From a virus (lineage: Duplodnaviria > Heunggongvirae > Uroviricota > Caudoviricetes): DNA of 23,227 nt. The position numbers and the translations under genes were made by a program. Every line of letters begins with the position of its first letter. Within the stretch, counting starts at the first letter, position 1. Where the stretch lies: IMG/VR virus record IMGVR_UViG_2565956617_000009; one strand, 5' to 3'. Positions 712-23,227 of this stretch are shown piece by piece. The notes beneath the pieces are model-generated. The model searched no databases. It saw only the letters and a list, made by a program, of their open reading frames with translations, and was not told the DNA's origin.

Positions 712-721
712 TATTCCTCAC

Positions 722-2153: not shown

Positions 2154-2157
2154 GGTT

Positions 2158-5831: not shown

Positions 5832-5845
5832 GGTGTTTACTCCGT

Positions 5846-6624: not shown

Positions 6625-6627
6625 GCG

Positions 6628-6831: not shown

Positions 6832-7340
6832 CAGATTTGACTCACGATGCAGCGCGGCTTGCCCTGGATGCGCGCCACCGCCCAGCGCATATCCCGCCAC
6901 AGCTCATCAATGGTGCTGTCAATGCTGTCAGCCTTCTTGTCGCCTTTCGCACTGGCATCCACGCCGCGATAACGCTCATAAAGCGACGCGGTCGCCATCG
7001 CACACACGGCGCGCTCGTAGTAAAAAACTTTGATGCTTTCACCGTCGATGTCGTCCGCAGGGACGTCCGCCAGACGCGTAAAACCGGCGGCAATTTTCTG
7101 TTCGCGGTACTCGTACAGCTCTGCATTCGTCTCCGCCATGCCTGACTTGATGGCCTCACGCAGACGGGCGGGGGCGACGGTCTGCTCAAGGCGCATACGT
7201 TCCCGGACGCGCTTCGGGGCGATATCGGGAAAAAAGAACGTGTTTTTAATCACCGGCTCGTCGCCTGCCGGTTGCGGGATGACCACCGTACCCTCACCGG
7301 ATACAGGAGCCTCCTTTCGCGGAATAATCAGCGTCATCAT
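6831..7340 (-). CDS. L: Head completion/stabilisation protein gpL
   Basis: ORF trimmed to the double-Met start (rc 7338..7340, MMTLIIPRKEAP...) giving 169 aa, the P2 gpL length. Confidence 0.85.
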   Translation of the reverse strand: MMTLIIPRKEAPVSGEGTVVIPQPAGDEPVIKNTFFFPDIAPKRVRERMRLEQTVAPARLREAIKSGMAETNAELYEYREQKIAAGFTRLADVPADDIDGESIKVFYYERAVCAMATASLYERYRGVDASAKGDKKADSIDSTIDELWRDMRWAVARIQGKPRCIVSQI

Positions 7341-7439
7341 GACTACCTCTGAAAAGTCGGGCGGTGGACGCCGGTGCAGTGTCAGGTGATTCACCGTCAC
7401 TGACCGGCGTGCCGCCCTGGCGCGGGGCGCATTCGGTTG

Positions 7440-8183
7440 TTAACTGGCTTTCTTTTTCGGGCGTCCACGTTTTGCCGGTGTCACGCTCCGGGTCTTACGC
7501 GGGGTACGGGTGGCCGCTTTTGGCTGCGGCTCCGGCTTCGGTTTCAGCTCCCGCTCCAGTCGTTCAATCTCTTTTTTGACGCCTGCCTGACAGTCGAGCT
7601 GTGTCGCACGTTGCAGGTGCGCCAGCGCACCTGCGGCATCACCAGCGTCACGCAGAAACAGACCGGTAATTTTGTGCAGCTTTGCGCGCACTTCATCAGG
7701 CATGTCTGCCGTGGCGGTCAGTTCAAGGGTTTCCGTCAGCAGGCGGGGATCCACAGACTCACCGGCAGCGTGAGCGCGCATGGCCGCGAGCGCCACCTCC
7801 TCGGTGAACATGTACGGCGGGGTGCGACGGTGTTTACCCGGCATGGTCAGACCGTACTTCAGGGCATAGCGGGCAATCTCCAGCGCACCAGCGATATCGC
7901 CGGTATCCAGACGCCACAGCATGACCGTCATCAGAATGTCATCCTGTGCGCCTTTGCCCTGCTCCAGCACGCCGTTCACCCACGGCAACCAGAACGGCAG
8001 CAGTTCGCGTTTTTTCGCGGCCTTCAGCTCTTTTGAATAAATCGCTTTCAGTGTGCGCTGGTCTGCGGCCAGCTTAACCAGCATCTGCTCATAGACAGTT
8101 GCATGTCGCAGCGGGGCGGCTTCCCGCTGCGCGGTCATCGCTGCCGAGACCCGCATCATGTGGCGCTGTGCGGGACTCGTCAT
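7440..8183 (-). CDS. M: Terminase small (endonuclease) subunit gpM
   Basis: 247-aa ORF, same length as P2 gpM, between N and L; basic C-terminal tail. Confidence 0.9.
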   Translation of the reverse strand: MTSPAQRHMMRVSAAMTAQREAAPLRHATVYEQMLVKLAADQRTLKAIYSKELKAAKKRELLPFWLPWVNGVLEQGKGAQDDILMTVMLWRLDTGDIAGALEIARYALKYGLTMPGKHRRTPPYMFTEEVALAAMRAHAAGESVDPRLLTETLELTATADMPDEVRAKLHKITGLFLRDAGDAAGALAHLQRATQLDCQAGVKKEIERLERELKPKPEPQPKAATRTPRKTRSVTPAKRGRPKKKAS

Positions 8184-8186
8184 CAG

Positions 8187-9260
8187 TTACGCTCCCGGCT
8201 CTGCGGTCGCCTTAGCCGGTGTGGAGAAGTCACCGACCTTGATTTTTTCCACCAGACAACCGGCGGCGTAGTCTTCCACCACGTAATCAATGTTCATTGA
8301 CTCGTAGTTCTCCACGCGGTCGAGTTTCGGGTTTTCCTCAATCACGCGGCGATGGCTGTCATCCATGTAGTAGATGGACAGGTTTTCCAGCTTCGTGATG
8401 AGCATCGCATCCGCCGGGAAGTACGGGACGCGTACCGCCGGCAGGTTACCGATGCGTTTCTGGCTGATGATGACGTCAGCGGCCAGCATTTCGCTGTTGT
8501 CCTGCTCCTTGTTGACGATGGGGAAATACTTGTCCGCCAGTAACTGACGACCCACAATCACCACAAGGTCAGGGTCTTCCTGATACCACGGTTCAATCAG
8601 GTTGTTGGTCGCATCCATCACCAGTGCATCAAGGCTGGCATAATCACCACCCTTACCCACGCGGATGACCTCAGAGGTGGTGTGACCTTCCTCGTCAGTG
8701 ACCTTGCTCATCACGCGCGCCGGGGCTTCATTGCGGTATTTCTGCAGCCAGCCGACCGCCACATCCTGCAGCATCGGATTACTGTTGCGGTCAGAGGTTT
8801 CGGCACGCTTCACGCCGTTAAAACCGGCCATGATGAAATCAAGGGACTGGCGTTTGATAATGGCGTTACGGATACGGAGCTGGAAATCCTGATAACGCGC
8901 CCACAGGTCAAGCGTTTTATAGCGGATATAAAAATCGAAGTTGATCTGGTCGCATTCGTACTTGTTGGACTCCAGCTTCGAGAAGTCCTTCGGCTGACGC
9001 TCGGTGCCACCGGCGGTGTCGGTGGTGCTGGCAATGGAGCCGGTGACACCGACGCCAATTTTTTCCCCTTTCATTTCGCTGACCGGCACAATATTGATGC
9101 GGGTCAGAAAGTCGGAAGACTCCTGCATGGTGTTCATCAGGGTCTGGGTGACCGACGGTTCAACGGTGAATTTTTTCGACACATCACCGGCGTCGATGCC
9201 GTTCAGTTCGGCAACACGGGACAGGTAGGCATTAAATTTAAAGCGGGTTTCCTGGCGCAT
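8187..9260 (-). CDS. N: Major capsid protein gpN
   Basis: 357-aa ORF, same length as P2 gpN, between O and M. Confidence 0.9.
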   Translation of the reverse strand: MRQETRFKFNAYLSRVAELNGIDAGDVSKKFTVEPSVTQTLMNTMQESSDFLTRINIVPVSEMKGEKIGVGVTGSIASTTDTAGGTERQPKDFSKLESNKYECDQINFDFYIRYKTLDLWARYQDFQLRIRNAIIKRQSLDFIMAGFNGVKRAETSDRNSNPMLQDVAVGWLQKYRNEAPARVMSKVTDEEGHTTSEVIRVGKGGDYASLDALVMDATNNLIEPWYQEDPDLVVIVGRQLLADKYFPIVNKEQDNSEMLAADVIISQKRIGNLPAVRVPYFPADAMLITKLENLSIYYMDDSHRRVIEENPKLDRVENYESMNIDYVVEDYAAGCLVEKIKVGDFSTPAKATAEPGA

Positions 9261-9318
9261 AGTTTTTCCTGAAATTAAGGGTTAATCGTGAAGGTTTTCC
9301 CGGACTGACTGACGCCGG

Positions 9319-10173
9319 TCAGCAGTTCGTCATCAGGGCGTCACCGCCACCACCGGTGGCCTTGCTGCGGCGCTGCTGGGTCAGACTTTCGGTGTGGTCG
9401 AGACTGTTTTTCAGGCGGGTGAATGCCTGGCTGGTTTCATCCGCCCTGTCAGTCACATCCTGCTTAAGTGCGGAAAAAGCGGTTTCCATCTCAGCGAGGC
9501 GCTGCTCAGTGGCGCTCAGTTTTTCCTGCACATGTTCAGCAACAGCGGTCACCGCTTCATGCACGTCATTCAGACGGGCATCATCGCTGGCCTGTTTGCG
9601 GCCAAAAATGGACTTCACCTTTTCGGTCAGGGCGGTGAACACGGTTTCAGGCAGGTCTTCAAATTCCAGCTCAACGGGCGTTGCCACTGAAATCAGGTTT
9701 TCAGGGCTTAATTTGAAGCGGTTCAGGGGGTTGTGTTTTGCCGTGCGGCAGAATTCCAGGTATTCCGTGCCGAGGCTTGCCGGGTCATCGGTGACGGCCA
9801 GCCCCACCAGATAACATTTGCCGGTGTTGGCAAAGTTCGGCTGAATTTCCATTGAGGTATAGACCTTCTGCGCGGCCTTGTTCATCGCGATAAGGTCATC
9901 GGTCGGGGTGATTTTCGCAAACAGCGCCCATTTGCCTTTCAGCGCCGAATCATCGTCAATCTTTTCGGCCTTCAGTTCGGCCACATCGCCATAACGTTTA
10001 AAAATACCGTCAGGCAGGATGCCGCGCAGATGTTCCAGGTTAATACGGCAACCATAGACACGCGGGTCAAAGGTTTCGGCCATTTCCTGAATATCCTGCG
10101 CACTGATGACACGCCCGTCACAGGTGTCACCCTCAACGCCGATACGAAAGAATTTTGAGACTTTTTTTGCCAT
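9319..10173 (-). CDS. O: Capsid scaffolding protein gpO
   Basis: ORF trimmed to ATG at rc 10171..10173 (MAKKVSKFFRIGVEGDT...) giving 284 aa, the P2 gpO length. Divergent from P. Confidence 0.9.
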   Translation of the reverse strand: MAKKVSKFFRIGVEGDTCDGRVISAQDIQEMAETFDPRVYGCRINLEHLRGILPDGIFKRYGDVAELKAEKIDDDSALKGKWALFAKITPTDDLIAMNKAAQKVYTSMEIQPNFANTGKCYLVGLAVTDDPASLGTEYLEFCRTAKHNPLNRFKLSPENLISVATPVELEFEDLPETVFTALTEKVKSIFGRKQASDDARLNDVHEAVTAVAEHVQEKLSATEQRLAEMETAFSALKQDVTDRADETSQAFTRLKNSLDHTESLTQQRRSKATGGGGDALMTNC

Positions 10174-10346
10174 TGTCAGGAGTCCTGAATAGTGATTAGA
10201 GGAGTCACATGTCGGCATCAGTTTCCCGACGATGCGCATCCTCCGCCATCAGTCCCGGATGGCTTATCACTGACACAACAGCACCTTAGCGAATCGCGGG
10301 GCGCGACTCAGTAGCCTTGCCGTGTATTCATCACGGCGAGGTATTC
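10174..10346. promoter_or_regulatory. Divergent O/P intergenic region, expected to carry the activator-dependent late promoters
   Basis: 173-nt gap between divergent late operons, as in P2 where P_O and P_P lie here. I found no perfect TGT-N12-ACA dyad, only a near match TGG-N12-ACA at 10260..10277, so the exact promoter positions are not resolved. Confidence 0.4.
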
Positions 10347-12119
10347 ATGACCATCACCACAGACACCACTCTTTTACACGACCCGCGTCGTCAGGCGGCG
10401 CTGCTGTACTGGCAGGGATTTTCCGTGCCGCAGATTGCCGCCATGTTGCAGATGAAGCGCCCGACGGTGCAGAGCTGGAAACAGCGCGACGGCTGGGACA
10501 GCGTTGCTCCCATCAGCCGTGTCGAAATGAGTCTGGAAGCGCGGCTGACCCAGCTCATCATCAAACCGCAGAAAACCGGCGGTGACTTCAAGGAAATTGA
10601 CCTGCTCGGACGCCAGATTGAACGACTGGCGCGGGTCAACCGTTACAGCCAGACCGGCAACGAGGCAGACCTTAATCCGAACGTTGCTAACCGCAACAAA
10701 GGCGGGCGTCGCAAACCGAAAAAGAATTTTTTCAGTGACGAGGCCATCGAAAAGCTGGAGCAGATTTTCTTTGAGCAGTCTTTCGAATATCAGTTGCGCT
10801 GGTATCGCGCCGGGCTTGAGCACCGCATCCGCGATATCCTGAAATCCCGCCAGATTGGCGCGACGTTTTATTTTTCCCGCGAGGCGCTGCTGCGCGCCCT
10901 GAAAACCGGTCATAACCAGATTTTTCTGTCGGCCAGTAAAACGCAGGCGTATGTGTTCCGCGAATACATCATCGCCTTTGCCCGTCTGGTTGACGTTGAC
11001 CTGACCGGTGACCCGATTGTCCTGGGCAATAACGGCGCAAAACTAATTTTTCTCGGCACCAACTCCAACACCGCACAGAGCCATAACGGCGACCTGTACG
11101 TCGACGAGATTTTCTGGATCCCGAATTTTCAGGTACTGCGTAAGGTGGCATCAGGTATGGCCTCACAGAGTCACCTGCGTTCGACCTATTTCTCCACCCC
11201 GTCCACGCTGGCGCACGACGCCTACCCGTTCTGGTCAGGTGAACTGTTCAACCGGGGACGCGCCAGCGCCGCCGAACGCGTGGAAATCGACGTCAGTCAT
11301 AACGCCCTTGCCGGTGGGCTTCTCTGTGCGGACGGCCAGTGGCGGCAGATTGTCACCATTGAGGACGCCCTGAAAGGTGGCTGCACGCTGTTCGACATTG
11401 AGCAGCTCAAACGTGAAAACAGCGCCGACGATTTTAAAAACCTGTTCATGTGTGAATTTGTTGACGACAAGGCGTCGGTGTTCCCGTTCGAGGAGCTGCA
11501 ACGCTGCATGGTCGACACGCTGGAAGAATGGGAAGACTATGCGCCGTTTGCCGCCAATCCGTTCGGCTCCCGCCCGGTATGGATTGGTTACGACCCGTCA
11601 CACCGTGGCGACAGCGCCGGATGCGTGGTGCTGGCACCGCCGGTGGTGGCCGGTGGCAAATTCAGAATACTTGAGCGTCACCAGTGGAAAGGCATGGACT
11701 TTGCCACCCAGGCGGAATCCATCCGCAAACTCACCGAAAAATATAACGTTGAATACATCGGGATTGATGCCACCGGCCTCGGTGTCGGCGTGTTCCAGCT
11801 CGTGCGCTCGTTCTATCCCGCCGCGCGCGATATCCGCTACACGCCGGAAATGAAAACCGCAATGGTGCTCAAGGCAAAAGACGTTATCCGCCGTGGCTGT
11901 CTGGAATATGACGTCAGCGCCACCGACATCACCAGCTCGTTTATGGCTATCCGCAAGACCATGACCAGCAGCGGACGCAGCGCCACCTATGAGGCCAGCC
12001 GCAGCGAGGAAGCCAGCCACGCCGACCTCGCCTGGGCGACCATGCACGCCCTGTTAAATGAGCCACTCACCGCCGGTATCAGCACCCCGCTGACATCCAC
12101 CATTCTGGAGTTTTACTGA
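10347..12119 (+). CDS. P: Terminase large (ATPase) subunit gpP
   Basis: ORF 10317..12119 trimmed to ATG 10347 (MTITTDTTLLHDPRRQAALLYWQGF...) giving 590 aa, the P2 gpP length. GAGG lies 6 nt upstream. Confidence 0.9.
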   Translation: MTITTDTTLLHDPRRQAALLYWQGFSVPQIAAMLQMKRPTVQSWKQRDGWDSVAPISRVEMSLEARLTQLIIKPQKTGGDFKEIDLLGRQIERLARVNRYSQTGNEADLNPNVANRNKGGRRKPKKNFFSDEAIEKLEQIFFEQSFEYQLRWYRAGLEHRIRDILKSRQIGATFYFSREALLRALKTGHNQIFLSASKTQAYVFREYIIAFARLVDVDLTGDPIVLGNNGAKLIFLGTNSNTAQSHNGDLYVDEIFWIPNFQVLRKVASGMASQSHLRSTYFSTPSTLAHDAYPFWSGELFNRGRASAAERVEIDVSHNALAGGLLCADGQWRQIVTIEDALKGGCTLFDIEQLKRENSADDFKNLFMCEFVDDKASVFPFEELQRCMVDTLEEWEDYAPFAANPFGSRPVWIGYDPSHRGDSAGCVVLAPPVVAGGKFRILERHQWKGMDFATQAESIRKLTEKYNVEYIGIDATGLGVGVFQLVRSFYPAARDIRYTPEMKTAMVLKAKDVIRRGCLEYDVSATDITSSFMAIRKTMTSSGRSATYEASRSEEASHADLAWATMHALLNEPLTAGISTPLTSTILEFY

Positions 12120-13153
12120 TGAGCAAGAAAAAAGGGAAAATACCGCAACCTGCGGCAAAAAAAATGACCGCCAGCGCCCCGAAAATGGAGGCATTCACCT
12201 TTGGTGAGCCGGTGCCGGTACTCGACCGCCGTGACATTCTGGATTACGTCGAATGCATCAGTAACGGCAGATGGTATGAGCCGCCGGTCAGCTTTACCGG
12301 TCTGGCAAAAAGTCTGCGTGCTGCCGTGCATCACAGCTCACCGATTTACGTCAAACGTAATATTCTGGCCTCGACATTTATCCCGCATCCGTGGCTTTCC
12401 CAGCAGGATTTCAGCCGCTTTGTGCTGGATTTTCTGGTGTTCGGTAATGCGTTTCTGGAAAAGCGCTACAGCACCACCGGTAAGGTCATCAGACTGGAAA
12501 CCTCACCGGCAAAATATACCCGCCGTGGTGTTGAGGAGGATGTTTACTGGTGGGTGCCGTCCTTCAACGAGCCGACACCTTTCGCGCCCGGCTCCGTGTT
12601 TCATCTGCTGGAGCCGGATATTAATCAGGAGCTGTACGGCCTGCCGGAATATCTCAGCGCCCTTAACTCTGCCTGGCTGAATGAGTCGGCCACGCTGTTC
12701 CGCCGCAAGTATTACGAAAACGGCGCTCATGCCGGATATATCATGTACGTCACTGATGCCGTGCAGGACCGCAACGATATCGAAATGCTTCGCGAAAACA
12801 TGGTGAAGTCGAAAGGCCGCAACAACTTTAAAAACCTGTTTCTCTATGCCCCACAGGGGAAAGCCGACGGCATTAAAATTATCCCGCTCAGTGAAGTGGC
12901 GACGAAGGACGATTTTTTTAATATCAAAAAAGCCAGCGCCGCTGACCTGCTGGACGCGCACCGCATCCCCTTTCAGTTGATGGGCGGCAAGCCGGAGAAC
13001 GTCGGGTCGCTGGGTGATATTGAGAAAGTGGCAAAGGTCTTTGTCCGCAATGAGCTTATCCCGTTACAGGACAGGATCCGCGAGATAAACGGCTGGCTCG
13101 GTCAGGAGGTCATCCGCTTTAAAAACTACTCACTGGACACTGACAACGACTGA
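12119..13153 (+). CDS. Q: Portal (capsid vertex) protein gpQ
   Basis: 344-aa ORF, same length as P2 gpQ. Start overlaps the P stop (TGATG). Confidence 0.9.
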   Translation: MSKKKGKIPQPAAKKMTASAPKMEAFTFGEPVPVLDRRDILDYVECISNGRWYEPPVSFTGLAKSLRAAVHHSSPIYVKRNILASTFIPHPWLSQQDFSRFVLDFLVFGNAFLEKRYSTTGKVIRLETSPAKYTRRGVEEDVYWWVPSFNEPTPFAPGSVFHLLEPDINQELYGLPEYLSALNSAWLNESATLFRRKYYENGAHAGYIMYVTDAVQDRNDIEMLRENMVKSKGRNNFKNLFLYAPQGKADGIKIIPLSEVATKDDFFNIKKASAADLLDAHRIPFQLMGGKPENVGSLGDIEKVAKVFVRNELIPLQDRIREINGWLGQEVIRFKNYSLDTDND

Positions 13154-13158
13154 ACATC

Positions 13159-13180
13159 GCCGCCTGCGGGCGGCTTTTTT
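13159..13180 (+). terminator. Rho-independent terminator after Q
   Basis: GCCGCC (13159..13164), loop TGCG, GGCGGC (13169..13174), then TTTTTT (13175..13180), 6 nt after the Q stop. Confidence 0.6.
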
Positions 13181-13322
13181 ACCCCCCGTCATCACACCCT
13201 CACACGCTCACCACCGCACAAAACAGCCCGCAGACACACCAACGCCCCGGCAGGCCGACTAAATGCCATCACGACGCACTGAGACGCTGAAAAAATAAAA
13301 TCAGCACCACCGCCAGCGCGCA

Positions 13323-13341
13323 GTGCTTTCCCCGCCTCGCC
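13323..13341. other. cos site: 19-nt cohesive-end sequence of P2-type phages
   Basis: GTGCTTTCCCCGCCTCGCC on the plus strand is the reverse complement of GGCGAGGCGGGGAAAGCAC, which I recall as the P2 cohesive end. It lies downstream of Q where cos is expected. Confidence 0.8.
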
Positions 13342-13454
13342 CGCCCGCTTTATGGGTCGTTTTTAATGCAGTTGCATTGATAGCATAAGGGCGCGCCATT
13401 ACTGGCACACCTTTTCATCATCCTAGATAAAATTCTAATGCAATAGCAGGCAAC

Positions 13455-15467
13455 TTAATGCACTTGTTGCATTGTCTCTTGAGCTTTCTCACCCTCTGGA
13501 ATTTTTATCGTATTACTATTAATTAAAGCATGAATTCGCTTATCGTTAGGCGAACGTTCAACTAGATGATCTAAGAATTCTTGCCATTGACGTTTAGCTT
13601 CAGCAAGCAGATCACCCCAAGTAAGAGTTTCAAGTCCATCCTCTTTAAGCTTTCTAACCTTTTTTAAAAATGCAGGATTTTTCTTGGCTATTTTATCAGC
13701 AACCAAATAACCAGTAGCAGTATTAAATCTTGATCCCGTAGAGCTTTCAAGATGGCCACGAAATGTGTCTACATATGTCTCAAACCTAACTAAATGATCT
13801 AAATCAATCATTAACCCTGGACGCATAAACTCAAGGATTAGCAAATGCTCACCACTCGCTAAAACCAAATCAACTCGTCCATTAAAATCTTCATCCTTAT
13901 CAAGGCCTGAATCTTTAGCTGCTTCAGCAGCCAAATCTCCGACATTTCGCTCCTTAGCGAAGGTTTCCCACTTTGGTGATATTAACCATGGGTTATTCGC
14001 AATATAATCTCGCACTGCATTTTCTAATTCACGATTTTTTATTCGTGACTCAAGTCCTATTATTGTGTCCAGCTTTGCCTTTACAGATTCAGCTGTATGC
14101 AATGCTTGTATTGTATTAGCCTCGATAAGCATAGATAGCAATTTATCGCCATCCATATCGGGTACTTCTGCAACTTGCCTGATTAACTCCTTTAACCGAC
14201 CTCCTTCCCATGCAGTAAGAACAGAATTGGCTAACTCTTTGAATTGATTTGCATTTATTTGATTAATGCTAGCCAACTTCTTAAGGGCTGTCATAATGGT
14301 TTTTTTCTCGCTTGGAGCGAGTTTTTCAATTCTTGAACTAAAGTCAGAAACTTTGTCTTCTATCAGTTTCGTTTTTTCTTCAGCCCTCCGGTCTTTCCAT
14401 ATTTTTAATAAATTGCGAATACGAGCCTTCCCCCACTCTTCAAGAGTGGCTAAATGATGATGCCCCCAATTCAACCGTTGTCGCTCAGTTGAAATAACAT
14501 CCTCATCAAATTCATCAAGGTAGTCAGCTAATACTGCACCCGTCATATATTCTGGCCCATTCTGGCTAGGTAACCCTCCTGCCAAATTAAACATAAATGG
14601 TCTTTGGGCTAATTTCCCATGAGAAAATATTGAAATACCTTGTAATTCCTCTTCCTTTATAGTTTCTTTTAAGAAGAAAACTCTCCATTTTATTTGATGG
14701 TCACCGACCATTTCTGTTCCCCATCCATCTTTATCAATCTCAGTCAATCCTTTTGGTTTTTCATCTTGTTTGTAGTCCTTAGGAAAGGACATTTCTGACT
14801 TGCTAAGAAAGTCTTCTGTAGGGATTAACTTCCCATCAATGCTCACATAAAAATCTGCTGCGGCAGCATTTACAGAGAAACGGCGAGCCATAGATGTTGC
14901 AAAAAAATCAGCTGAAATCAGGCGCTGAATTTTCAAACAAGTTAACTTAATTGTTGTACCATGTGCTTTTTTTAATTCATTGTTAGGTTCAACTCTCTCA
15001 ATCACATCGATGGTAAGTTTCGATGTATTGATATAATCATCATTTGATGAATCACGAATTTTATCAATATCTAGTACAAATGATGTTTTCTCGCCAGTAT
15101 CCTTACTAATAGTTGTTACTGTTATAACTGATGCAATACCAAAACCAGCAAATTTTCCAATTCCTTTTCTTCCCATCAGTGGACGTTTTAAATCACGGGA
15201 AAGCGTTTTTGCATTATTTTTACGCTTATCATACCCCACTGTCAGAAACTTATTCTGACATTCCTCTAGGGTCATTCCGATACCATTATCTTGAATCGTA
15301 ATTGAGAAATCGTCATGCGTAGGAAGAGTAATTTTCACCTCAGTTGCATCAGCATCCCAGGAGTTAGAAACCATTTCAGCAATAGCAGCTGTTGGACTTT
15401 GATACATTTGTATGCCCAAATGATCAATTATTCTTCCGTGGAAACTTAAAAATAAAGATTTTTCCAT
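13455..15467 (-). CDS. GHKL-superfamily (Bergerat-fold, MORC/MutL/Hsp90-like HATPase) ATPase, 670 aa, with an uncharacterised C-terminal region; candidate effector of a methyltransferase-linked system
   Basis: Motifs read from the translation: N-box EMVSNSWDA (nt 15351..15377), G1 box DNGIGM (15273..15290), G2 box GRKGIGKFAGFG (15138..15173), then GTTIKL. ATG at rc 15465..15467 lies 4 nt after the methyltransferase stop, with AGGA about 9 nt upstream. Strongly AT-rich. Confidence 0.85.
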   Translation of the reverse strand: MEKSLFLSFHGRIIDHLGIQMYQSPTAAIAEMVSNSWDADATEVKITLPTHDDFSITIQDNGIGMTLEECQNKFLTVGYDKRKNNAKTLSRDLKRPLMGRKGIGKFAGFGIASVITVTTISKDTGEKTSFVLDIDKIRDSSNDDYINTSKLTIDVIERVEPNNELKKAHGTTIKLTCLKIQRLISADFFATSMARRFSVNAAAADFYVSIDGKLIPTEDFLSKSEMSFPKDYKQDEKPKGLTEIDKDGWGTEMVGDHQIKWRVFFLKETIKEEELQGISIFSHGKLAQRPFMFNLAGGLPSQNGPEYMTGAVLADYLDEFDEDVISTERQRLNWGHHHLATLEEWGKARIRNLLKIWKDRRAEEKTKLIEDKVSDFSSRIEKLAPSEKKTIMTALKKLASINQINANQFKELANSVLTAWEGGRLKELIRQVAEVPDMDGDKLLSMLIEANTIQALHTAESVKAKLDTIIGLESRIKNRELENAVRDYIANNPWLISPKWETFAKERNVGDLAAEAAKDSGLDKDEDFNGRVDLVLASGEHLLILEFMRPGLMIDLDHLVRFETYVDTFRGHLESSTGSRFNTATGYLVADKIAKKNPAFLKKVRKLKEDGLETLTWGDLLAEAKRQWQEFLDHLVERSPNDKRIHALINSNTIKIPEGEKAQETMQQVH

Positions 15468-15471
15468 TTGC

Positions 15472-16500
15472 TTATCCTAATTCAATAAGATGTTTTTTTA
15501 TTACCTCTGCATGACGCTTGATAAATTCTGGAGGTAACGCATTACCAATCATAAGAGCTGCTCTATCTTTACCATACTTGATTGGAAAGTAATAATCCTT
15601 CGGAAAAGTTTGCAATAGAGCGGCCTCCCGCAAAGTGATCGCTCTATCTTGTACAGGATGAAGGAATCGTCCTTTAGATGGATTAGTGCAACCACTTGTT
15701 ATTGTTGGGGATACATCATCCCATTTCATGCGCCCATAAACATCCCTAAATCCATTTGGATATTTTTTATGGCACGGTAGCCAGTATTCATATGGTAAGT
15801 CAGAACGACTACCACCATCTTTTGGCACTAGCTTTATTATATTCATGACTTTTTCAGAGCGATTTTCTTTTATATTATGCAAAAAGTCATCACTATATTG
15901 AGGTAATGGTAAATCTCCAATTACATCCTTAACAGTTACTTTTTTGCTATTTTTTTTCGCTCTTGGTAAATATCCTAATCTTGAAGCCAACATTACCATA
16001 CGCCGCCGTCTCTGTGGCACTCCATAGTTAGAAGCATCTTCAATCGCAACAGAGGTTGAATCAATGAAATACCCTAACTGTTTCAATTCATCGCAAAAAA
16101 TTTTCATGCGATAATCTTTAGCTAATGCGGGCACATTTTCCAACATTACTACTTTAGGAAGAAAGTATTTAACAAATTCCAAAAACGAAAATATTAAATC
16201 ATTCCGTTCATCGGTAACCGAAGAATATTTATTCCTCGTTCTTAAGCTTGAAAAACCCTGACATGGAGGACATCCTGCAAGCAAGTCAAGTTGCCCTTGC
16301 TGGAGACCAAGTTCAATCATGATTTTTTTGGGGGACAACTCCCTTATGTCTCCCGTATACAATGATACATCAGGATGATTCTGCATATAGGTTTCAGAAA
16401 CAATAGGCTCCTTTTCGACTGCTGATATAACGTCAAAGCCAGCCATCTTAAGACCAACTGTCAGGCCACCTGCGCCGCAGAAGAGATCTATCGCTTTCAT
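15472..16500 (-). CDS. DNA (cytosine-5)-methyltransferase, 342 aa
   Basis: Canonical C5-MTase motifs: motif I FCGAGG (16465..16482), catalytic PCQ in GCPPCQGFS (Cys codon 16261..16263), motif VI ENV (16132..16140), motif VIII QRRRR, C-terminal GNALPP. AAGGA lies just upstream of the ATG at rc 16498..16500. AT-rich. Confidence 0.9.
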   Translation of the reverse strand: MKAIDLFCGAGGLTVGLKMAGFDVISAVEKEPIVSETYMQNHPDVSLYTGDIRELSPKKIMIELGLQQGQLDLLAGCPPCQGFSSLRTRNKYSSVTDERNDLIFSFLEFVKYFLPKVVMLENVPALAKDYRMKIFCDELKQLGYFIDSTSVAIEDASNYGVPQRRRRMVMLASRLGYLPRAKKNSKKVTVKDVIGDLPLPQYSDDFLHNIKENRSEKVMNIIKLVPKDGGSRSDLPYEYWLPCHKKYPNGFRDVYGRMKWDDVSPTITSGCTNPSKGRFLHPVQDRAITLREAALLQTFPKDYYFPIKYGKDRAALMIGNALPPEFIKRHAEVIKKHLIELG

Positions 16501-16551
16501 AAAATCCTTAACAAACCTAAACCAATATATAACATTGAAAAATATTGGATG

Positions 16552-16580
16552 AGTATAAATGACTCTCCATGTCGCAGCAA
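16552..16580 (-). promoter_or_regulatory. Candidate sigma70-type promoter for the methyltransferase-ATPase operon
   Basis: On the minus strand TTGCTG (-35, plus coords 16575..16580), a 17-nt spacer, then TATACT (-10, 16552..16557), about 50 nt upstream of the methyltransferase ATG in an AT-rich leader. Confidence 0.3.
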
Positions 16581-16767
16581 AAGTATATTTGTGAAAGACA
16601 GCTCAGATAGGAGCAGAGCACCAAACATATCGGATTGTCGATGCATGAACGAGGAATCACCATTTCTCTAATACATACTCTAACTCTGAAGAGTAAGTTC
16701 TTGTGTATGTTCATTTCACTTCCAGAGCCAATGCTACTCAACCTCATCAGCCCTGAAAGCAAAAGAT

Positions 16768-16992
16768 TCACGGCTGACGGGATTCTCGACCATCTGCGGA
16801 TGACGATGCAACTCTATACTGACCGATATCGTTAAGCCGCCCGTAATTATCCCGGACTATTTCGGCACACCCGACCAGCTCGTCAGGCGTCAGATTTTCG
16901 TTGACCATAATCTGCTGTAGACGGTGAACAATAGCCATCAGCTTGATATTTTTAGTGTTATGTTGCGGTATCTCGCCTGGTATTCTGTGCAT
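16768..16992 (-). CDS. Small hypothetical protein (74 aa), translationally coupled to the upstream ORF
   Basis: ATG at rc 16990..16992 overlaps the stop of the preceding ORF (TAATG). No recognisable motif. Confidence 0.4.
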   Translation of the reverse strand: MHRIPGEIPQHNTKNIKLMAIVHRLQQIMVNENLTPDELVGCAEIVRDNYGRLNDIGQYRVASSSADGRESRQP

Positions 16993-17444
16993 TATCCAAG
17001 CCACCCGTTTTGCTTTGCACGCTCAATCTGTTCATCTGAATAGCTCCACATCCCATCCGCAGCAACCACTGCCCCGCCAGACAGCCCTGTCACTGACTCA
17101 TACATAACAGCAAGACCGAGCTGATGCATAATTTCATGATTAATTCTGAATACCAGACCACGCTCACCAAGCTCTTTCCAGTTCACAATCTCATATGCGC
17201 CTGTATTAAGCAGCTCAATACTTAGCAAGACATAATCTTCCAGCCAGTCTGACAGGTCAGTAACATCTGTTATCCGGGCTTCAACCTTTCGCCCCGTATA
17301 CACACCCTGCACCCATTCATGCAAAATCAACGTGTCCCCGCGCTCATAATTACGGTCATTTTTCCGAAACTCTGCACGTTTCTTTCCTTCCAGCACAAGG
17401 TCGAAATATTTTGCGTGCAGCTTTACCTCGTGAATTTTTGCCAT
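16992..17444 (-). CDS. ASCH/DUF3850-like small protein downstream of A (P2 orf91 position), with a C-terminal extension
   Basis: Start MAKIHEVKLHAKYFDLVLEGKKRAEFRKNDRNYERGDTLILHEW resembles the ASCH-like/DUF3850 pattern as I recall it. ATG at rc 17442..17444, 19 nt upstream of the A stop. About 150 aa, longer than I would expect for this family. Confidence 0.55.
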   Translation of the reverse strand: MAKIHEVKLHAKYFDLVLEGKKRAEFRKNDRNYERGDTLILHEWVQGVYTGRKVEARITDVTDLSDWLEDYVLLSIELLNTGAYEIVNWKELGERGLVFRINHEIMHQLGLAVMYESVTGLSGGAVVAADGMWSYSDEQIERAKQNGWLG

Positions 17445-19729
17445 GATGTCCACTCCATTACTGTTGAGAATCCCGGCCACTCATCAGTGACCGGATACGT
17501 GAATTTTTTCCCGTCATAATTTACGGTCGCGCCACGCGCCAGCGCCTCAAGTTCCCATCGCTGAGGCCAGATGCCGTTCTGAGCAAGGTCAACACGGATA
17601 CGGGTAATTTGCATACGCTCCGACCGGGTCAGCCTGGCCGATGGCGCTATTTCATTCGGTTTTAACGGGCTTCCGTTTCTTTGCTGACGGTTTGGTGTTC
17701 TCAGGCCGTGTTTTAATGCGCCCCTGAGCGCCCTCACGACCTCCGGGTCATTCCATTCGATAACACCGTCATCAACCAGATTAAGCACGGCTGCGGCGTG
17801 CTCAGAAGGTGTGGGAGCCGGTAACGAAGTATCACCACCGGTGAGCTTTCCACAGTTATTGACAGGACTCCGAGGCGCGGCGATGCCGCTTTTTAAAGTC
17901 AAAGGCTCAACGACCGGCACTTTCGGCACAATGCGCCAGTCCGTCGTTCTGGTGATATGAATATGACGCGCGCCGAGATGCGGCGCGTAAATGCCGACCA
18001 CTCTCTCGACTTCTTCCTCGTACTCGTTAACGTCATCCGACGGGCTACGGGCAACCCTGACAGTCTGACAATCGCGCGGAACATTTGCCCCACCCTGCGC
18101 GCTGATATACAACGCAAAATCACCACTGTCTGCGGCGGCGCGTGCAGCCTCGACGCGCTCGTCAAACTCATCAGCAATGCTGACGCCGCGCGGCAATTTG
18201 CGTAGTTCACGGTAAGCCCCCATTGTCGGCAGACCAACCGTTTTAAATTGCGGGATGCGCCACGTTGACGCCCATGCAGTAACAGCCGCGGCAGTATCTT
18301 TCAGAGGTCTGCCGGTATCGTTATCGAGCTGACCATCCAGTGCATAGCCGTCGATGTTTTTTGAGATGTATTTCGCGATATACCCCGCAGCACCGCCCCG
18401 GTTAAGGTGTTTTGCCTGAAAACGGTTTCGCGCGGCTCCTCTTTCGTCGCCATCCTCTTTGAGCGCATAGCGACGCATGATTTCGATAATCTGGTTACGC
18501 TGGCGCGGATTACAAAAAAGCATCATATGCCAGTGCGGCGTTCCGTCGTGGTGTGGCTCGACGACACGCAAACCGTAGACCTGTAAATCATTATCCTTGA
18601 ATGCCGTGCGCATCAGGCTCCAGATACGGCAGAGATAACGCTGCGCATCCTTTGGATTAAATGCCTCATCGTTCCAGCCGTGATTTAGCTGGACGGTTTT
18701 ACTTTCGCCTTTTCTGACCTGACGTGTCGGGTGATACTTTGACGGCGCGGTCAGCGTGATAAACATCCCCACATCACCCTCTGCTGCGGCGTAACGCTCA
18801 ATACCGGCAATGGTGTTCATCAGCTCCATCCGGCGAATTTCAGGATTAGAAATACTGCCCATCACCTTACTGATAAGGTCGATGCGCTCGCCGGTTTCCC
18901 TGTTTTCAAGGTCACACGATTTAAGAAATTCCAGATTTGCCTGGCGGCGCGCACGCACATCACGAATGGCATGTTTACTGGCATAAGGAGAACGGTCTTT
19001 ATTGACCTCCCCGACAGCTATCAGTAACGCCTCATGCCAGCGCATACGCTGGCCTTTAAGCTGATGAGTCCACCACTCATCGTTAAACAGGCGGGCAATG
19101 GCAGAATATGCCTGCCTCGTGGTCATCTGTCCTTTACGGTATTTTTTCCAGTAGAGCGGGGAAATATTGAAAGCACGTGCAGCGCCAGCAACATGACCAT
19201 AGAGGTGAGCCTGCGCCTCATCCGTAAACAGCGATTCTTTTTCGCCATGTGCATCAACCCAGGCATCGCAGAGTTCCTCATACATCATGAAAAGCTGCGA
19301 TGAGATACGGGCAGCAAACTTTTTCAGCTCCTTGTCATTCATTCCCGGCAGGCGCGCATAGTGGTCACGCTCTGCCAGAAACAGTAACGACGCGTCGGTG
19401 TTCATTTCATGGCGCTGATTCACACGCTCAATGCGCGGCCATAAACGACGCTGAAAAGTGGATGTGAGGAAATAAAACCCGTGCACCGGGCTTTTATTGC
19501 GCCGGATGTAGTCATAGCGTGAAGTAAACAGCGAGCGCAAAAAGTAAGGCAGGCGGTTAATCGTGGATAAAACACCTTGCACCTGACGCATCTCGTCACG
19601 TGTAAGGGGTCTTTCGCGCCCGACAGCCTCGCGTGGCGCGTTCCATGCATAAGCACCGGTAAACGCCTTACCGGTGCCTGCAGCAAATGCTGACGGAGGG
19701 ACAAAACGCCCGGAGGCTTTAACGACCAT
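17423..19729 (-). CDS. A: Replication initiator gpA (rolling-circle HUH endonuclease)
   Basis: Near-identical over long stretches to P2 gpA as I recall it. HUH motif in GTPHWHMMLF and paired-tyrosine motif GAAGYIAKYISK. Start set to the ATG at rc 19727..19729 (MVVKASGRF...), about 768 aa; the ORF track extends to 19771. Confidence 0.9.
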   Translation of the reverse strand: MVVKASGRFVPPSAFAAGTGKAFTGAYAWNAPREAVGRERPLTRDEMRQVQGVLSTINRLPYFLRSLFTSRYDYIRRNKSPVHGFYFLTSTFQRRLWPRIERVNQRHEMNTDASLLFLAERDHYARLPGMNDKELKKFAARISSQLFMMYEELCDAWVDAHGEKESLFTDEAQAHLYGHVAGAARAFNISPLYWKKYRKGQMTTRQAYSAIARLFNDEWWTHQLKGQRMRWHEALLIAVGEVNKDRSPYASKHAIRDVRARRQANLEFLKSCDLENRETGERIDLISKVMGSISNPEIRRMELMNTIAGIERYAAAEGDVGMFITLTAPSKYHPTRQVRKGESKTVQLNHGWNDEAFNPKDAQRYLCRIWSLMRTAFKDNDLQVYGLRVVEPHHDGTPHWHMMLFCNPRQRNQIIEIMRRYALKEDGDERGAARNRFQAKHLNRGGAAGYIAKYISKNIDGYALDGQLDNDTGRPLKDTAAAVTAWASTWRIPQFKTVGLPTMGAYRELRKLPRGVSIADEFDERVEAARAAADSGDFALYISAQGGANVPRDCQTVRVARSPSDDVNEYEEEVERVVGIYAPHLGARHIHITRTTDWRIVPKVPVVEPLTLKSGIAAPRSPVNNCGKLTGGDTSLPAPTPSEHAAAVLNLVDDGVIEWNDPEVVRALRGALKHGLRTPNRQQRNGSPLKPNEIAPSARLTRSERMQITRIRVDLAQNGIWPQRWELEALARGATVNYDGKKFTYPVTDEWPGFSTVMEWTSWQKFTR

Positions 19730-19994
19730 ATGAGCCAAAAGCCTCTGAACAACGCTTGCTGAGTCGCTCAACCTGCGCGTTTAAATCAGCAAAAGACTTT
19801 GCGCTTCCGGTCAGAATATCGTGATGCATCAGGCCGGAAACGAGCTGGTTTAATTTCGGGTAATAACCAACCACCGACAGCCATTCCTGACCGGCGTTTT
19901 TACCGCTTTCCGCTCTCTTTTTCTCGTGGAGAATAAACTGAAAGCTGTCACTGGTAACGACATAACGTTCGCCAATTTCAATACAAATACTCAT
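19719..19994 (-). CDS. Early-operon small protein (P2 orf83 position)
   Basis: 91-aa ORF immediately upstream of A, overlapping its start, in the cox-B-A operon. Confidence 0.6.
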   Translation of the reverse strand: MSICIEIGERYVVTSDSFQFILHEKKRAESGKNAGQEWLSVVGYYPKLNQLVSGLMHHDILTGSAKSFADLNAQVERLSKRCSEAFGSYGR

Positions 19995-20215
19995 GCCGTT
20001 CTCCGGTAATGTTTGTTTTTTGCTTCAAAGACTGACTGACAGGAAACACAACGCGTGGCTGACGGATAAGCCGCACGACGGGCAGCAGGTATTGGCGCGT
20101 CACACTCTTCGCAAACCAGCGCAGAAGCACCGCAATGTTTTACCCTTGCCGCGTTAATCTGACGCTCCAGTAATTCAGCCTGTTGTTCCTGAATAAAATC
20201 TACGTTGTCCGGCAT
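19991..20215 (-). CDS. TraR/DksA-family C4 zinc-finger protein (P2 orf82 position)
   Basis: 74-aa ORF with CxxC...17 residues...CxxC (CEECDAPIPAARRAAYPSATRCVSCQ), typical of DksA/TraR-type zinc fingers. Confidence 0.7.
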   Translation of the reverse strand: MPDNVDFIQEQQAELLERQINAARVKHCGASALVCEECDAPIPAARRAAYPSATRCVSCQSVFEAKNKHYRRTA

Positions 20216-20520
20216 TACCAGCTCCTTTTGTCGTTAAGTTTTTTAAATTCATCAGCGTAATAGCTGGCGATTTCTGTCGTTAATTTTGTCAGTTCATCCA
20301 CGGAGGAGATTTTCTTGTGAAATACAGCGTGTTTAACAAGTAAATTGACCACATCAGACAGGAGATTTAATTCGTTCTGATAAATCGCGATAACAGATTC
20401 AGTTATTTCGCGTTTTTCTTTATCAAGACCAAGTTGAATAAGAGATAAATCGCCATTTTTCATAACGGCGATTTTTAAGGCGTTATTCAGTAATACAACT
20501 GAACGAGAACAGGACATCAA
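20215..20520 (-). CDS. Early-operon small protein (P2 orf81 position)
   Basis: 101-aa ORF, tightly packed with its neighbours in the early operon. Confidence 0.55.
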
Positions 20521-20741
20521 AGCACCTCCCCGCGAGACAATCCGATATTGTGAAATTTTTCCGACTCCTGACTGAGCAGCTCGACTATCTCCACGCGGGA
20601 TAACTCCGCCTTTGTGATGTGGCGAATCATGGCGTCAAGATGAGAAGAAAAGCGCGTCGCAGCATCGGCCTGTGCTTCGGTTCTGGCCTGTTGCAGCAGT
20701 AATGCGTATTTACCGCACTGATTTTCAGAAACTGTATGCAT
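20517..20741 (-). CDS. Early-operon small protein (P2 orf80 position)
   Basis: 74-aa ORF overlapping the next ORF by 4 nt, downstream of B. Confidence 0.55.
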
Positions 20742-20804
20742 GACTTTCTCCAGGCAAAAAGAAACCCCGCACGATTAAGTGCGTTAAAAACTCTGGTTAA
20801 TTAC

Positions 20805-21305
20805 TTAATGCAGATATTGCTCTGGTTTTACCGACGTCAGAATTGTCGGTGCATACTCAAACAGGCTGAATAATTCACGTAATGCACGGAATAAAGCATC
20901 ACGCCAGTAACATGATTCTTCATTAATTCGCCAGTATGGCTGGTTGAATTCTTTTTCAGTCAATCCGGCATGCATAAATAAAGTACGACGCTGACTGACT
21001 GTTAAAAAACTAATATATGCATACTCACTTGCGCCAACCTGACGGCGTTTTGAGAATGCCCCACGCAATTCATCAATTGCACAAACCAGCCGTTCACGTT
21101 CGACGTCGTTCATTTCTTCAAAACGCATCGTTGCGTGACGCTGTTTTAACTGCGCATGGAAGCAAACCGTTAGCCGTTCGCGTTCCATCATCTGATTATA
21201 ATAATCACATGTATCCTGCCAGCGAGGGACGGCAAGATGCTTGCCAATTATCCGGCGCATAGCTGCTGGCTGTTTTTCAACGAGATTGAGCGTCATCACT
21301 GTCAT
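20805..21305 (-). CDS. B: Replication protein gpB
   Basis: 166-aa ORF, same length as P2 gpB, at the P2 B position in the early operon. Confidence 0.85.
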   Translation of the reverse strand: MTVMTLNLVEKQPAAMRRIIGKHLAVPRWQDTCDYYNQMMERERLTVCFHAQLKQRHATMRFEEMNDVERERLVCAIDELRGAFSKRRQVGASEYAYISFLTVSQRRTLFMHAGLTEKEFNQPYWRINEESCYWRDALFRALRELFSLFEYAPTILTSVKPEQYLH

Positions 21306-21472
21306 TTCCAGACCCTCCGGCTTTTCAGAAAGGTCAGAGCCTTTTTTAACGGACTCTGTTTTTTGGTGCGGATAATGATTCCCTTGCGTCCCTTCCCGTG
21401 GGTGATGGTGAAGTCAATCGCCCTGGGGCTTTCGTTACGCAATAACTGAGCAATACAACGCGGCTCATTCAT
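21302..21472 (-). CDS. Early-operon small protein (P2 orf78 position)
   Basis: ORF 21302..21499 trimmed to the ATG at rc 21470..21472, 2 nt after the cox stop; the longer form would overlap cox by 25 nt. About 56 aa, basic. Confidence 0.45.
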   Translation of the reverse strand: MNEPRCIAQLLRNESPRAIDFTITHGKGRKGIIIRTKKQSPLKKALTFLKSRRVWK

Positions 21473-21474
21473 AA

Positions 21475-21762
21475 TCACAACCCCATCCACAAAAGCCATG
21501 CATCACGCTGTTCAACCGGTCGGTTATAAAACGCCTCACGTACAGCGCGATTAAACTCAGGAATGAAAACCCATTTTTCACCGGCACGAGCCTTCGGTTT
21601 GCAAGGATCACGCAATTCAATAATTGGTAATTTATTTGCCTTCACCATTTCACTGACGGCTGTCTTTGGCTTCCCTAATAAATCAGCAAATTTATCCACA
21701 TGAACCGCATCAAGCGGATACTGAATCACATAATTTTCAGCGTCCATATATGGTACCCTCAT
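21475..21762 (-). CDS. cox: Cox (excisionase / lytic-switch regulator)
   Basis: 95-aa ORF, first gene of the early operon, divergent from C; about the size of P2 Cox (91 aa), with matching KLPVI-like and GEKWV-like segments. Confidence 0.8.
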   Translation of the reverse strand: MRVPYMDAENYVIQYPLDAVHVDKFADLLGKPKTAVSEMVKANKLPIIELRDPCKPKARAGEKWVFIPEFNRAVREAFYNRPVEQRDAWLLWMGL

Positions 21763-21883
21763 AGGATCCAGCCCTTTCTAAACCACTCAAAACCGTTTAG
21801 ACGCTGGTTTATTCTCAAATCAATGGAACCTATATAGGTTCCAGTTTTGAGGGAATTTAGTCCCTATATAGGCACCATGTCAA
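21763..21883. promoter_or_regulatory. Immunity switch region between cox and C, with candidate operators
   Basis: 18-bp perfect palindrome GGAACCTATATAGGTTCC (21825..21842) and a second copy of the core CCTATATAGG (21863..21872) 34 bp away. The TATATA cores could double as -10 elements. Confidence 0.6.
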
Positions 21884-22177
21884 ATGAAATTAAGCGAGAA
21901 GATTAAGGCCTTGCGTGAGGCTGAAGGGCTAAGCCAATCAAAATTCTGTGAAATCATAGAGTTACCGCTAAGCACACTTAAAAAATATGAAGGAGGAAAC
22001 TTTGAACCCGGTGGCACAGCTTTGCTAAAAATCACTATGCATCCCACATTCCAAAAATATGCTCTATGGCTTATGACAGATAAAACCGCGCCGGACGCAG
22101 GACAAATCGCACCGGCTCTCGCGCACATTGGGCCAGAGTCAACAGAGTCCAACCACTCCGCGAAAAGGATTGGCTAA
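21884..22177 (+). CDS. C: Immunity repressor C
   Basis: 97-aa ORF similar to P2 C (99 aa) as I recall it: helix-turn-helix region at the N-terminus and a shared C-terminal segment GQIAPALAH. Confidence 0.85.
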   Translation: MKLSEKIKALREAEGLSQSKFCEIIELPLSTLKKYEGGNFEPGGTALLKITMHPTFQKYALWLMTDKTAPDAGQIAPALAHIGPESTESNHSAKRIG

Positions 22178-22246
22178 CTCTATATAAAGATTACATTTTC
22201 ACCATTTGCTACCAAGATGGTGAATACAGCGCCGGAGGGCTTTCTT

Positions 22247-23227
22247 ATGGCAATTAAGAAGCTCGATGATGGTCGCTATGAAGTGGACATTAGACCTCGC
22301 GGTCGCGACGGAAAACGCATCCGCAGGAAATTCGAAAGAAAAGCTGAAGCACTAGCATTTGAGCGATACACAATCGCCAATGCCAGTCAGAAAGAATGGG
22401 GAGGCCAGCGAGCAGACCGCCGGACTTTGAGTGAGTTGCTGGACATCTGGTGGAAATATCACGGGCAAAACCACGAGCATGGAACAAAAGAGTTTAATCA
22501 TCTACTCAAAACCATCAGCGGCATAGGTGATATACCAGTGAGCAGGATGAGCAAAAGGGCTTTGATGGATTATCGTTCCATGCGACTACGTGATGGTATC
22601 AGTGCCGCAACGATAAACCGTGACATGTACCGATTATCCGGCATGTTCACAAAATTAATTCAATTGGATGAATTTTCCGGGCAACACCCAATTCACGGAC
22701 TGCCGCCACTGGCGGAGGCCAACCCTGAAATGACGTTCCTGGAAAAAGCAGAAATCGAAAAACTGTTAAATGTTTTGGCTGGTGATGACTTACTTGTCGC
22801 GCTTTTATGTCTGAGCACTGGAGGAAGATGGACGGAAGTTGCCACGCTAAAACCAGCACAGATTACAAATTGCAGGGTTACCTTCCTGAAAACCAAAAAC
22901 GGTAAAAAGCGAACCGTGCCGATTTCTGAGGAACTGGAGAAAAAAGTTAAAGAGGAGGCCAGCGCCAAATTATTCAAAGTTGATTATGAGAAATTTTGCG
23001 GGATTTTACGCAGAGTGAAACCTGATATACCACCCAATCAGGCAACCCACATCCTGCGGCATACATTCGCAAGCCATTTCATGATGAATGGGGGCAATAT
23101 AATCGCACTGCAACAGATTCTGGGACATGCGAGCATTCAGCAGACGATGGCCTATGCGCACCTTGCGCCTGACTATCTGCAAAATGCCGTCGCTCTGAAT
23201 CCACTAAAAGGCGGAGTGACGTTATAA
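22247..23227 (+). CDS. int: Tyrosine integrase
   Basis: ORF 22217..23227 trimmed to ATG 22247 (MAIKKLDDGRYEVDIRP..., the P2 Int N-terminus as I recall it), with GGAGGG 8 nt upstream. C-terminal catalytic region HxLRHTFASHF...ILGH...YAH. Stop is at the window end. Confidence 0.9.
   Translation: MAIKKLDDGRYEVDIRPRGRDGKRIRRKFERKAEALAFERYTIANASQKEWGGQRADRRTLSELLDIWWKYHGQNHEHGTKEFNHLLKTISGIGDIPVSRMSKRALMDYRSMRLRDGISAATINRDMYRLSGMFTKLIQLDEFSGQHPIHGLPPLAEANPEMTFLEKAEIEKLLNVLAGDDLLVALLCLSTGGRWTEVATLKPAQITNCRVTFLKTKNGKKRTVPISEELEKKVKEEASAKLFKVDYEKFCGILRRVKPDIPPNQATHILRHTFASHFMMNGGNIIALQQILGHASIQQTMAYAHLAPDYLQNAVALNPLKGGVTL

Follow-up and report, generated by a model that had tools for sequence, protein, structure and literature searches.

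The 23,227-nucleotide (nt) stretch of DNA analysed here, referred to throughout as the window, is the Caudoviricetes record IMGVR_UViG_2565956617_000009. It is a P2-like prophage, 100% identical to a prophage of Escherichia coli Ec40743 that is integrated beside cpxP, and its genes run in the order P, Q, the cohesive end (cos), a low-GC (guanine plus cytosine) island, small open reading frames (ORFs; one of 74 amino acids (aa) and one resembling P2 Orf91) and A, reversed relative to the P2 map. The subject of this work is the island, a variable block at 13378..16734 that is defined by both its GC contrast and the breaks in homology with relatives. Its cargo is a single minus-strand operon of two genes, 4 nt apart and transcribed toward cos, in which the gene for a C5 cytosine DNA methyltransferase of 342 aa (15472..16500) comes first, followed by the gene for a candidate restriction endonuclease of 670 aa (13455..15467).

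The contrast in composition between the island and the phage backbone is real and large. An exact count gives a GC content of 0.377 across 13378-16734 against 0.568 in the backbone at 4251-13322, and a trace in 500-nt sliding windows falls from 0.53-0.62 in the structural and replication genes to 0.34-0.42 over approximately 13250-16750. When the entire 23-kb sequence is searched for the 3357-bp window with the lowest GC, that window starts at 13351. GC at third codon positions (GC3) is 0.276 in the nuclease gene and 0.303 in the methylase gene, compared with 0.66-0.71 in Q and P. An earlier note, made from the letters alone, had put the island at about 30% GC and the flanks at about 55%; the low GC is upheld, but the figure of 30% fits third codon positions only. 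It overstates the drop, because the 60-nt lines in 13441-16500 (n = 51) average 0.378 (range 0.23-0.52), with just 29% of them at or below 0.33.

Nucleotide alignment with relatives (blastn) continues at 96-97% identity through Q and cos to 13356 or 13377, is absent inside the island and is found again at 93-94% from 16735 or 16738. As homology stops at 13377 and restarts at 16735/16738, the variable block is placed at 13378-16734. Its left junction lies 36 nt beyond the end of cos, with the first ORF ending 114 nt beyond the same point, and its right junction lies 33 nt before the 74-aa ORF; the limits originally proposed, 13342-16767, from the cos side to the small ORFs after A, correctly bracket this measured block. 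No direct repeats, inverted-repeat or insertion sequence ends, integrase or transposase were found at the island junctions, and recombination in the conserved flanks is what we infer, as the remaining explanation, for how the cargo was inserted. The interval 13000-17600 contains no Rfam matches, even at an E value of 0.1. Repeats of TGCATT/AATGCA are observed at 13365-13378 and 13437-13475, and one inverted pair of these motifs, AATGCA-GT-TGCATT, has its end precisely where homology breaks off on the left (13377/13378). Additional copies, kept in prophages of Cronobacter and Morganella, flank the stop codon of the nuclease gene. These motifs could be binding sites for terminase or a regulator, or could mark a recombination breakpoint.

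The position of the island is that at which P2 carries tin and old, as both genes are found in the same interval, between Orf91 and cosR, of P2 itself. The P2 old/tin region and window 13371-17223 share no DNA by blastn, and comparison of the cargo proteins with Pfam, NCBIfam and PADLOC yields matches to a methylase and to a GHKL-type restriction enzyme alone, with nothing resembling Old or Tin. In other relatives the slot is occupied differently again: OU784549 carries a BspRI-like methylase and two further genes, vB_YpM_50 one small gene, vB_EcoM-720R8 a number of hypothetical genes and vB_YpM_22 a Fic/VbhT gene. The flanks of these four and of P2 are 94-97% identical, while the interiors are unrelated. 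Of 5426 complete E. coli genomes, 2185 have the Q-cos flank (at 3133 places), but just 8 have the methylase-nuclease cargo. Because P2 has old and tin in this position, and other relatives have unrelated genes, the content of the island is best described as swapped cargo. The alignment of relatives suggested in the earlier note, which had also suspected such a swap, provided both the exact junctions and a set of alternative occupants.

This slot is the published gpA-gpQ hotspot for anti-phage systems of P2-like phages, to which the earlier note had also referred; 18,150 loci with 1,650 arrangements are reported for it (Rousset et al. 2022, PMC9122126). The resemblance extends to an identical position between the portal gene and cos on one side and Orf91 and A on the other, to the conserved flanks, to the AT-rich and exchangeable content, and to size, with 3.4 kb here against a mean cargo of 3.2 kb in that study (PMC9122126). 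The study also indicates that the tested cargo of the slot is mostly active against phages (PMC9122126). The exact string WP_023156287+WP_023156285+WP_023156284+WP_023156286 appears in its Table S5A (PMC9122126). By comparison with old, which encodes an OLD-family ATPase-nuclease, and tin, the present cargo is unrelated and is transcribed in the opposite sense, toward rather than away from cos.

The methyltransferase matches Pfam DNA_methylase (PF00145, 1e-58, residues 1-336), TIGR00675 dcm (6e-44) and the PADLOC MTase_II model (3e-82). Its translation contains FCGAGG (7-12), PPCQGFS (78-84, including Cys80), ENV (120-122), QRRR (162-165) and GNALPP, so that, judged by its motifs, the enzyme is complete, with I, IV (PC, Cys80), VI (ENV), VIII (QRR) and X (GNALPP) all present. 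A search of the PDB with this protein returned just generic matches to DNMT1, HaeIII and HhaI.

Candidate expression signals lie at either end of the operon. A putative sigma-70 promoter on the minus strand, TTGCTG-17 nt-TATACT at 16552..16580, is located approximately 50 nt upstream of the methylase ATG and is conserved in Cronobacter and Morganella; in the P2-like copies, homology runs about 100 nt upstream of the methylase, to 16589-16605. A consensus promoter scan returned no more candidates than shuffled sequence would give (10 found against 10.6 expected), and it missed this candidate because the -35 hexamer fits at just three of six positions. It is solely the conservation in the two other prophages that suggests 16552-16580 is the operon promoter. 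Downstream of the nuclease gene, a hairpin on the minus strand at 13390..13411 aligns with the GCGCGCCAnnATTGGCGCGC+TTTT hairpin of the Cronobacter and Morganella prophages, and may likewise act as a terminator; its T-tract is degenerate in this window. As a source of a controller (C) protein, the small ORFs that precede the methylase (16497-16771) were considered and rejected, as they have no Pfam match and no RefSeq annotation.

The second protein of the operon is predicted to consist of a GHKL ATPase, an S5 domain, a helical arm and a PD-(D/E)xK nuclease domain. Its N-terminus matches the GHKL profile HATPase_c_3 (4e-25), and the protein as a whole matches PADLOC Type II restriction endonuclease models (REase_II, 3e-53). 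Almost its entire length is covered by NF050001, the NCBIfam model for the 'BbrUII/HgiDII family restriction enzyme', with residues 13-637 aligning to model positions 9-647 of 659 (E 6.4e-98). As in R.HgiDII and R.BbrUII, the full-length homology includes both the N-terminal GHKL and the C-terminal domain, and the partner is a C5 methyltransferase; M.BbrUII has been called an N6-adenine methylase (PMC5829577), but elsewhere a C5 methylase homologous to M.HgiDII (PMC5867850). On the basis of sequence, the 670-aa protein is a homologue of BbrUII/HgiDII and not an equivalog. We read the superfamily as several roughly equidistant clades, of which that containing the window's protein appears to be sister to the characterised enzymes. 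The Type II enzyme HgiDII is reported to recognise GTCGAC (PMC5867850). As this clade is a sister of the characterised enzymes, that specificity is not transferable, and the recognition sequence probably differs from GTCGAC. No named restriction enzyme or methylase was found among the homologues in large protein searches, and the PHROGs family of the protein, phrog_6203, is annotated 'unknown function'.

An AlphaFold model built from a 61-sequence alignment (predicted local distance difference test score, pLDDT, 80.6) divides the protein into a GHKL domain at approximately 1-180, an S5-like domain at approximately 186-330, a long helical region at 337-477 and an alpha/beta C-terminal domain at 482-650. 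Foldseek comparison of the first two domains gives Hsp90/TRAP1, MORC2, MORC3 and SMCHD1. Profile searches of the PDB found the heads of MutL, MORC and Hsp90 only, with no solved structure matched beyond the ATPase head; the C-terminal domain sequence had no significant match in the PDB, and the domain was assigned by comparison of folds alone. Its structural matches are headed by AF1548 (score 9.7) and NucS (8.7, 24% identity), then N.BspD6I (7.9), FokI (7.5), Hna and LlaBIII (both 7.4), and E. coli SduA and AspBHI (both 7.3), with MspJI, NucC, HindIII and NgoMIV at lower scores. The invariant residues E506, R531, D533, E546, H558, R561 and Y565 sit on the expected elements of the nuclease core. 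The C-terminal domain of R.HgiDII has been reported as unassigned to any fold (Orlowski and Bujnicki 2008, PMC2441816); its homology to the present model suggests a PD-(D/E)xK fold in divergent form. Among 1.84 billion representatives searched, the C-terminal domain was recovered in 547 clusters, essentially all of which are proteins of the same architecture and 615-710 aa in length, or fragments of these, the domain being located at about 460-660 in the full-length representatives.

The two genes are consistently linked. In every readable context (8 of 8, the window itself included), the C5 methylase lies directly upstream of the nuclease on the same strand, either a few bases away or overlapping; one further contig ends too near the gene to tell. 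The same slot holds copies in P2/186-like prophages of Cronobacter sakazakii and Morganella morganii, with amino-acid identities of 91% and 85%, and the isolated Yersinia phage P37 also carries the cassette there at 99.6% identity. The remaining copies are in a lambdoid Klebsiella prophage (66%), in Paraburkholderia (57%; next to an integrase, with a Vsr gene following) and in three genome or metagenome contigs (approximately 50%), one of which adjoins genes for an AAA_15/SMC-type ATPase and an MmeI-type restriction-modification protein. In the Klebsiella pneumoniae prophage, L012, the 66%-identical pair occupies 4968-7986, right after a lambda-P-like replication gene. This lambdoid copy shows the cassette to be mobile across families of temperate phages that are unrelated to each other.

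In comparisons of the E. coli, Cronobacter and Morganella copies, the proportion of synonymous differences (pS) is 0.64-0.77, which is saturated, while that of nonsynonymous differences (pN) is 0.05-0.09; the ratio of the corresponding substitution rates (dN/dS) is about 0.04-0.05 for both genes where it could be calculated. By this measure of sequence divergence, both genes are under strong purifying selection. The cassette proteins have diverged less than the portal protein of these phages, which is 61-83% identical, and cassette GC is 0.36-0.40 in every host, against 0.47-0.60 in the flanks.

Taken together, the island is exchangeable cargo of the gpQ-gpA hotspot and very probably encodes a two-gene, Type II-like restriction-modification system. 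In such a system, the C5 methyltransferase would mark a short DNA site in both host and prophage DNA, thereby protecting them. The 670-aa enzyme might, by analogy with MutL, MORC and Hsp90, dimerise through its GHKL ATPase heads, with the S5 and helical-arm regions clamping DNA and the C-terminal PD-(D/E)xK domain cutting unmethylated sites. On entry of the phage into a new cell, the methylase-first order and near-contiguous reading frames would favour protection ahead of restriction. A lysogen would then be expected to restrict incoming unmodified phage and plasmid DNA, with a penalty for loss of the prophage as a side effect. As the operon is on the same strand as the early genes A and the Orf91-like gene, lytic read-through into it is possible.

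Several points weigh against an active restriction-modification system of this kind. The NF050001 score of 329 bits is far under the equivalog cut-off of 550, and twenty other family members, drawn from the close and remote ends of the hit lists, are also all below it (233-344 bits). The sister clade is without any member of known recognition site or demonstrated activity. The canonical ExK lysine is missing, with E546-F-M548 followed by R549, and methionine is found at position 548 in 60 of 61 sequences. GTCGAC is found three times in the window, at 1085, 11100 and 11511, all outside the island, and is not avoided; this count carries no information, since the phage's DNA would itself be methylated. 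In the literature consulted, neither documentation of an ATP requirement for this enzyme class nor an experiment linking the cassette to phage resistance was found, and nothing relevant was found on phage P37 or the accessions of the cargo proteins. Table S5A of Rousset et al. (PMC9122126) records the cassette by Pfam labels only, apparently without an assay.

One alternative is that the pair is kept mainly as a module for post-segregational killing, stabilising the prophage or aiding competition between phages rather than defending the host. Type II restriction-modification systems are established selfish addiction modules, and the cassette rides on two types of temperate phage, P2-like and the lambdoid Klebsiella prophage. 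Nothing in the sequence separates addiction from defence, and the two are not exclusive, because the same biochemistry yields both effects. The generally anti-phage character of the tested cargo in this slot, as given in the hotspot study (PMC9122126), argues against addiction as the principal role, which is considered unlikely.

A second alternative concerns the nuclease alone. The combination of GHKL and S5 ATPase domains with a C-terminal domain of restriction endonuclease fold is shared with the prokaryotic paraMORC3 GHKL ATPases (Iyer, Abhiman and Aravind 2008, PMC2292703) and with the GHKL-Shedu protein VcSduA of Vibrio cholerae (PMC12137116), and the 670-aa protein is structurally similar to MORC2 and MORC3 and, in its nuclease domain, to SduA. 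It could thus be an ATP-gated defence nuclease of Shedu or paraMORC3 type that detects infection independently of methylation, as VcSduA works alone, with the methylase being unrelated or accessory. Many paraMORC3 genes, and that of VcSduA, are stand-alone, whereas the family of the 670-aa protein always lies beside a C5 methylase, as the eight contexts illustrate. SduA_C scores 13.6 bits against a Pfam cut-off of 27, the best family member reaching an E value of 0.016, and no PADLOC Shedu model is matched, while the REase_II models score 3e-53. NucS and AF1548 are better structural fits than SduA, and across the 547 clusters the nuclease domain is found in one architecture rather than shuffled onto other sensors. 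The motif here is E506-D533-E546-x-M548 and not the E-D-ExK of paraMORC3. Such a methylation-independent defence role seems quite improbable.

It is slightly less probable still that the cassette is an inactive remnant, comprising an orphan methylase and a decayed nuclease. The absent ExK lysine, the degenerate T-tract of the terminator and the promoter that is weak by consensus would be in keeping with decay, but M548 is a trait of the family rather than a lesion, because 60 of its 61 members have it. Furthermore, both ORFs are full length and strongly constrained, and the ATPase and methylase motifs are all intact. The weakest alternative, that the pair is ancestral P2-family backbone with a low GC imposed by local constraints, can draw on its presence in the same slot of P2/186-like prophages in three genera and on a pS comparable in depth with the portal gene's (0.60-0.63), from which its association with the slot appears to be old, but it is refuted by the comparison of relatives and is almost certainly wrong, given the unrelated genes between identical flanks in P2 and at least five other relatives, the rarity of the cargo relative to its flank in E. 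coli, the copies in a lambdoid prophage and in non-phage chromosomal contexts, and the GC3 of 0.28-0.30 beside phage genes at 0.66-0.71.

As a restriction-modification system, the cassette resembles other Type II systems of phages and their satellites, for example a P4-like element's EcoO109I, which PMC9122126 cites, and the BspRI-like methylase cassette of OU784549, which are likewise complete restriction-modification cargo for lysogenic conversion beside cos. The enzyme families of these cassettes are unrelated to those found here, where the nuclease bears an ATPase module. The cassette is a rare but already catalogued cargo of a known type: the hotspot, its swapped defence cargo, restriction-modification on P2 and P4 elements and restriction enzymes fused to GHKL domains were all known before, and the locus changes little, because it is already in a published catalogue. 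The modest novelty lies in the exact junctions, in the proposed sister-clade assignment relative to BbrUII/HgiDII, in the repeated occurrence of the cassette in this slot across three genera, as well as in a lambdoid prophage, and in what is, on the predicted structure, a confident assignment of the family's C-terminal domain to the PD-(D/E)xK fold, NucS/FokI-like with an atypical motif. The locus adds one more case, with exact junctions, of P2-like phages trading defence cargo beside cos. Of greater use is what the structural model adds on GHKL-fused Type II enzymes of the HgiDII kind.

A more far-reaching possibility, which is doubtful at present, is that the nuclease belongs to an uncharacterised class of ATP-driven, MORC-like clamp restriction enzymes, with a lysine-less D533...E546-x-M548 site, cutting of unmethylated DNA that depends on GHKL dimerisation, and a new specificity. 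MORC ATPases act in DNA-methylation-linked silencing in eukaryotes. Were this interpretation correct, the enzyme would be a bacterial model for the reading of cytosine methylation by MORC-type ATPases; if control by ATP in particular were demonstrated, MORC ATPases would have in this family a bacterial counterpart that is tractable.

The flanking genes are those expected of a P2-like phage. On the left, the terminase gene P is called at 10317-12119, the RefSeq start being 10347, and is followed on the plus strand by the portal gene Q at 12119..13153, an ORF annotated 'phage portal protein' in Ec40743 that forms part of the conserved left flank, 96% identical in relatives to 13356/13377. The 19-nt cohesive end, GTGCTTTCCCCGCCTCGCC, is placed at 13323..13341 by alignment to the annotated cosR of P2 (33575-33593); it is the reverse complement of GGCGAGGCGGGGAAAGCAC, and window position 13323 is also exactly where the linear record of Yersinia phage P37 starts.

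On the right, all three ORFs are on the minus strand. The 74-aa ORF (16768..16992; WP_023156286 in Ec40743; PHROG 11386, of unknown function) is a semi-conserved ORF that adjoins the junction on its backbone side, common to OU784549 and vB_YpM_50 and partly to vB_EcoM-720R8, and missing from P2 and vB_YpM_22. The Orf91-like protein (16992..17444) matches DUF3850 (8e-18), DUF7415 (2e-11) and ASCH (1e-10) in Pfam; its C-terminal DUF7415 half is common to OU784549 and vB_YpM_50, and its ORF overlaps the 3' end of gene A. The replication gene A itself (17423..19729), annotated 'replication endonuclease', is the conserved right flank, 94-96% identical in relatives. Homology on this side restarts at 16735 or 16738 in the relatives that retain the Orf91-like region, at 17224 in P2, at 17476 in vB_YpM_22, and in vB_EcoM-720R8 at 16738-16974 (85%) and then from 17467. 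As relatives rejoin at differing positions, the right edge of the slot, window 16735-17480, is mosaic.

Counts of hexamers over the backbone (1-3000, 4251-13377 and 16735-23227) reveal strong depletion of several GC-rich palindromes, though not of GTCGAC, relative to a Markov expectation, with GCCGGC observed once against 19.6 expected, GGCGCC never against 12.8, CAGCTG never against 12.2 and TGGCCA never against 8.1, a depletion that cannot be tied to the cargo system and may reflect either avoidance of restriction by the phage or a general bias of E. coli.

A second low-GC island is observed at window 3180-3990 (GC approximately 0.36-0.41), between the baseplate gene V and a tail-completion gene. 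Its minus-strand ORF (3215-3970, 251 aa; PHROG 10503, 'unknown function') has a CxxC...H...CxxC-N pattern and marginal Pfam matches to HNH_5/Endonuclease_1 (E 0.008), with no PADLOC match. Among 57 related phage records, this island is present in one phage, R18C (two records); phage P37, a carrier of the restriction-modification island, is absent from the records that share the one at 3180-3990. Since the remaining records match just 75 nt of gene V, 3180-3990 represents a second variable slot, which we take to be the orf30 position of P2.

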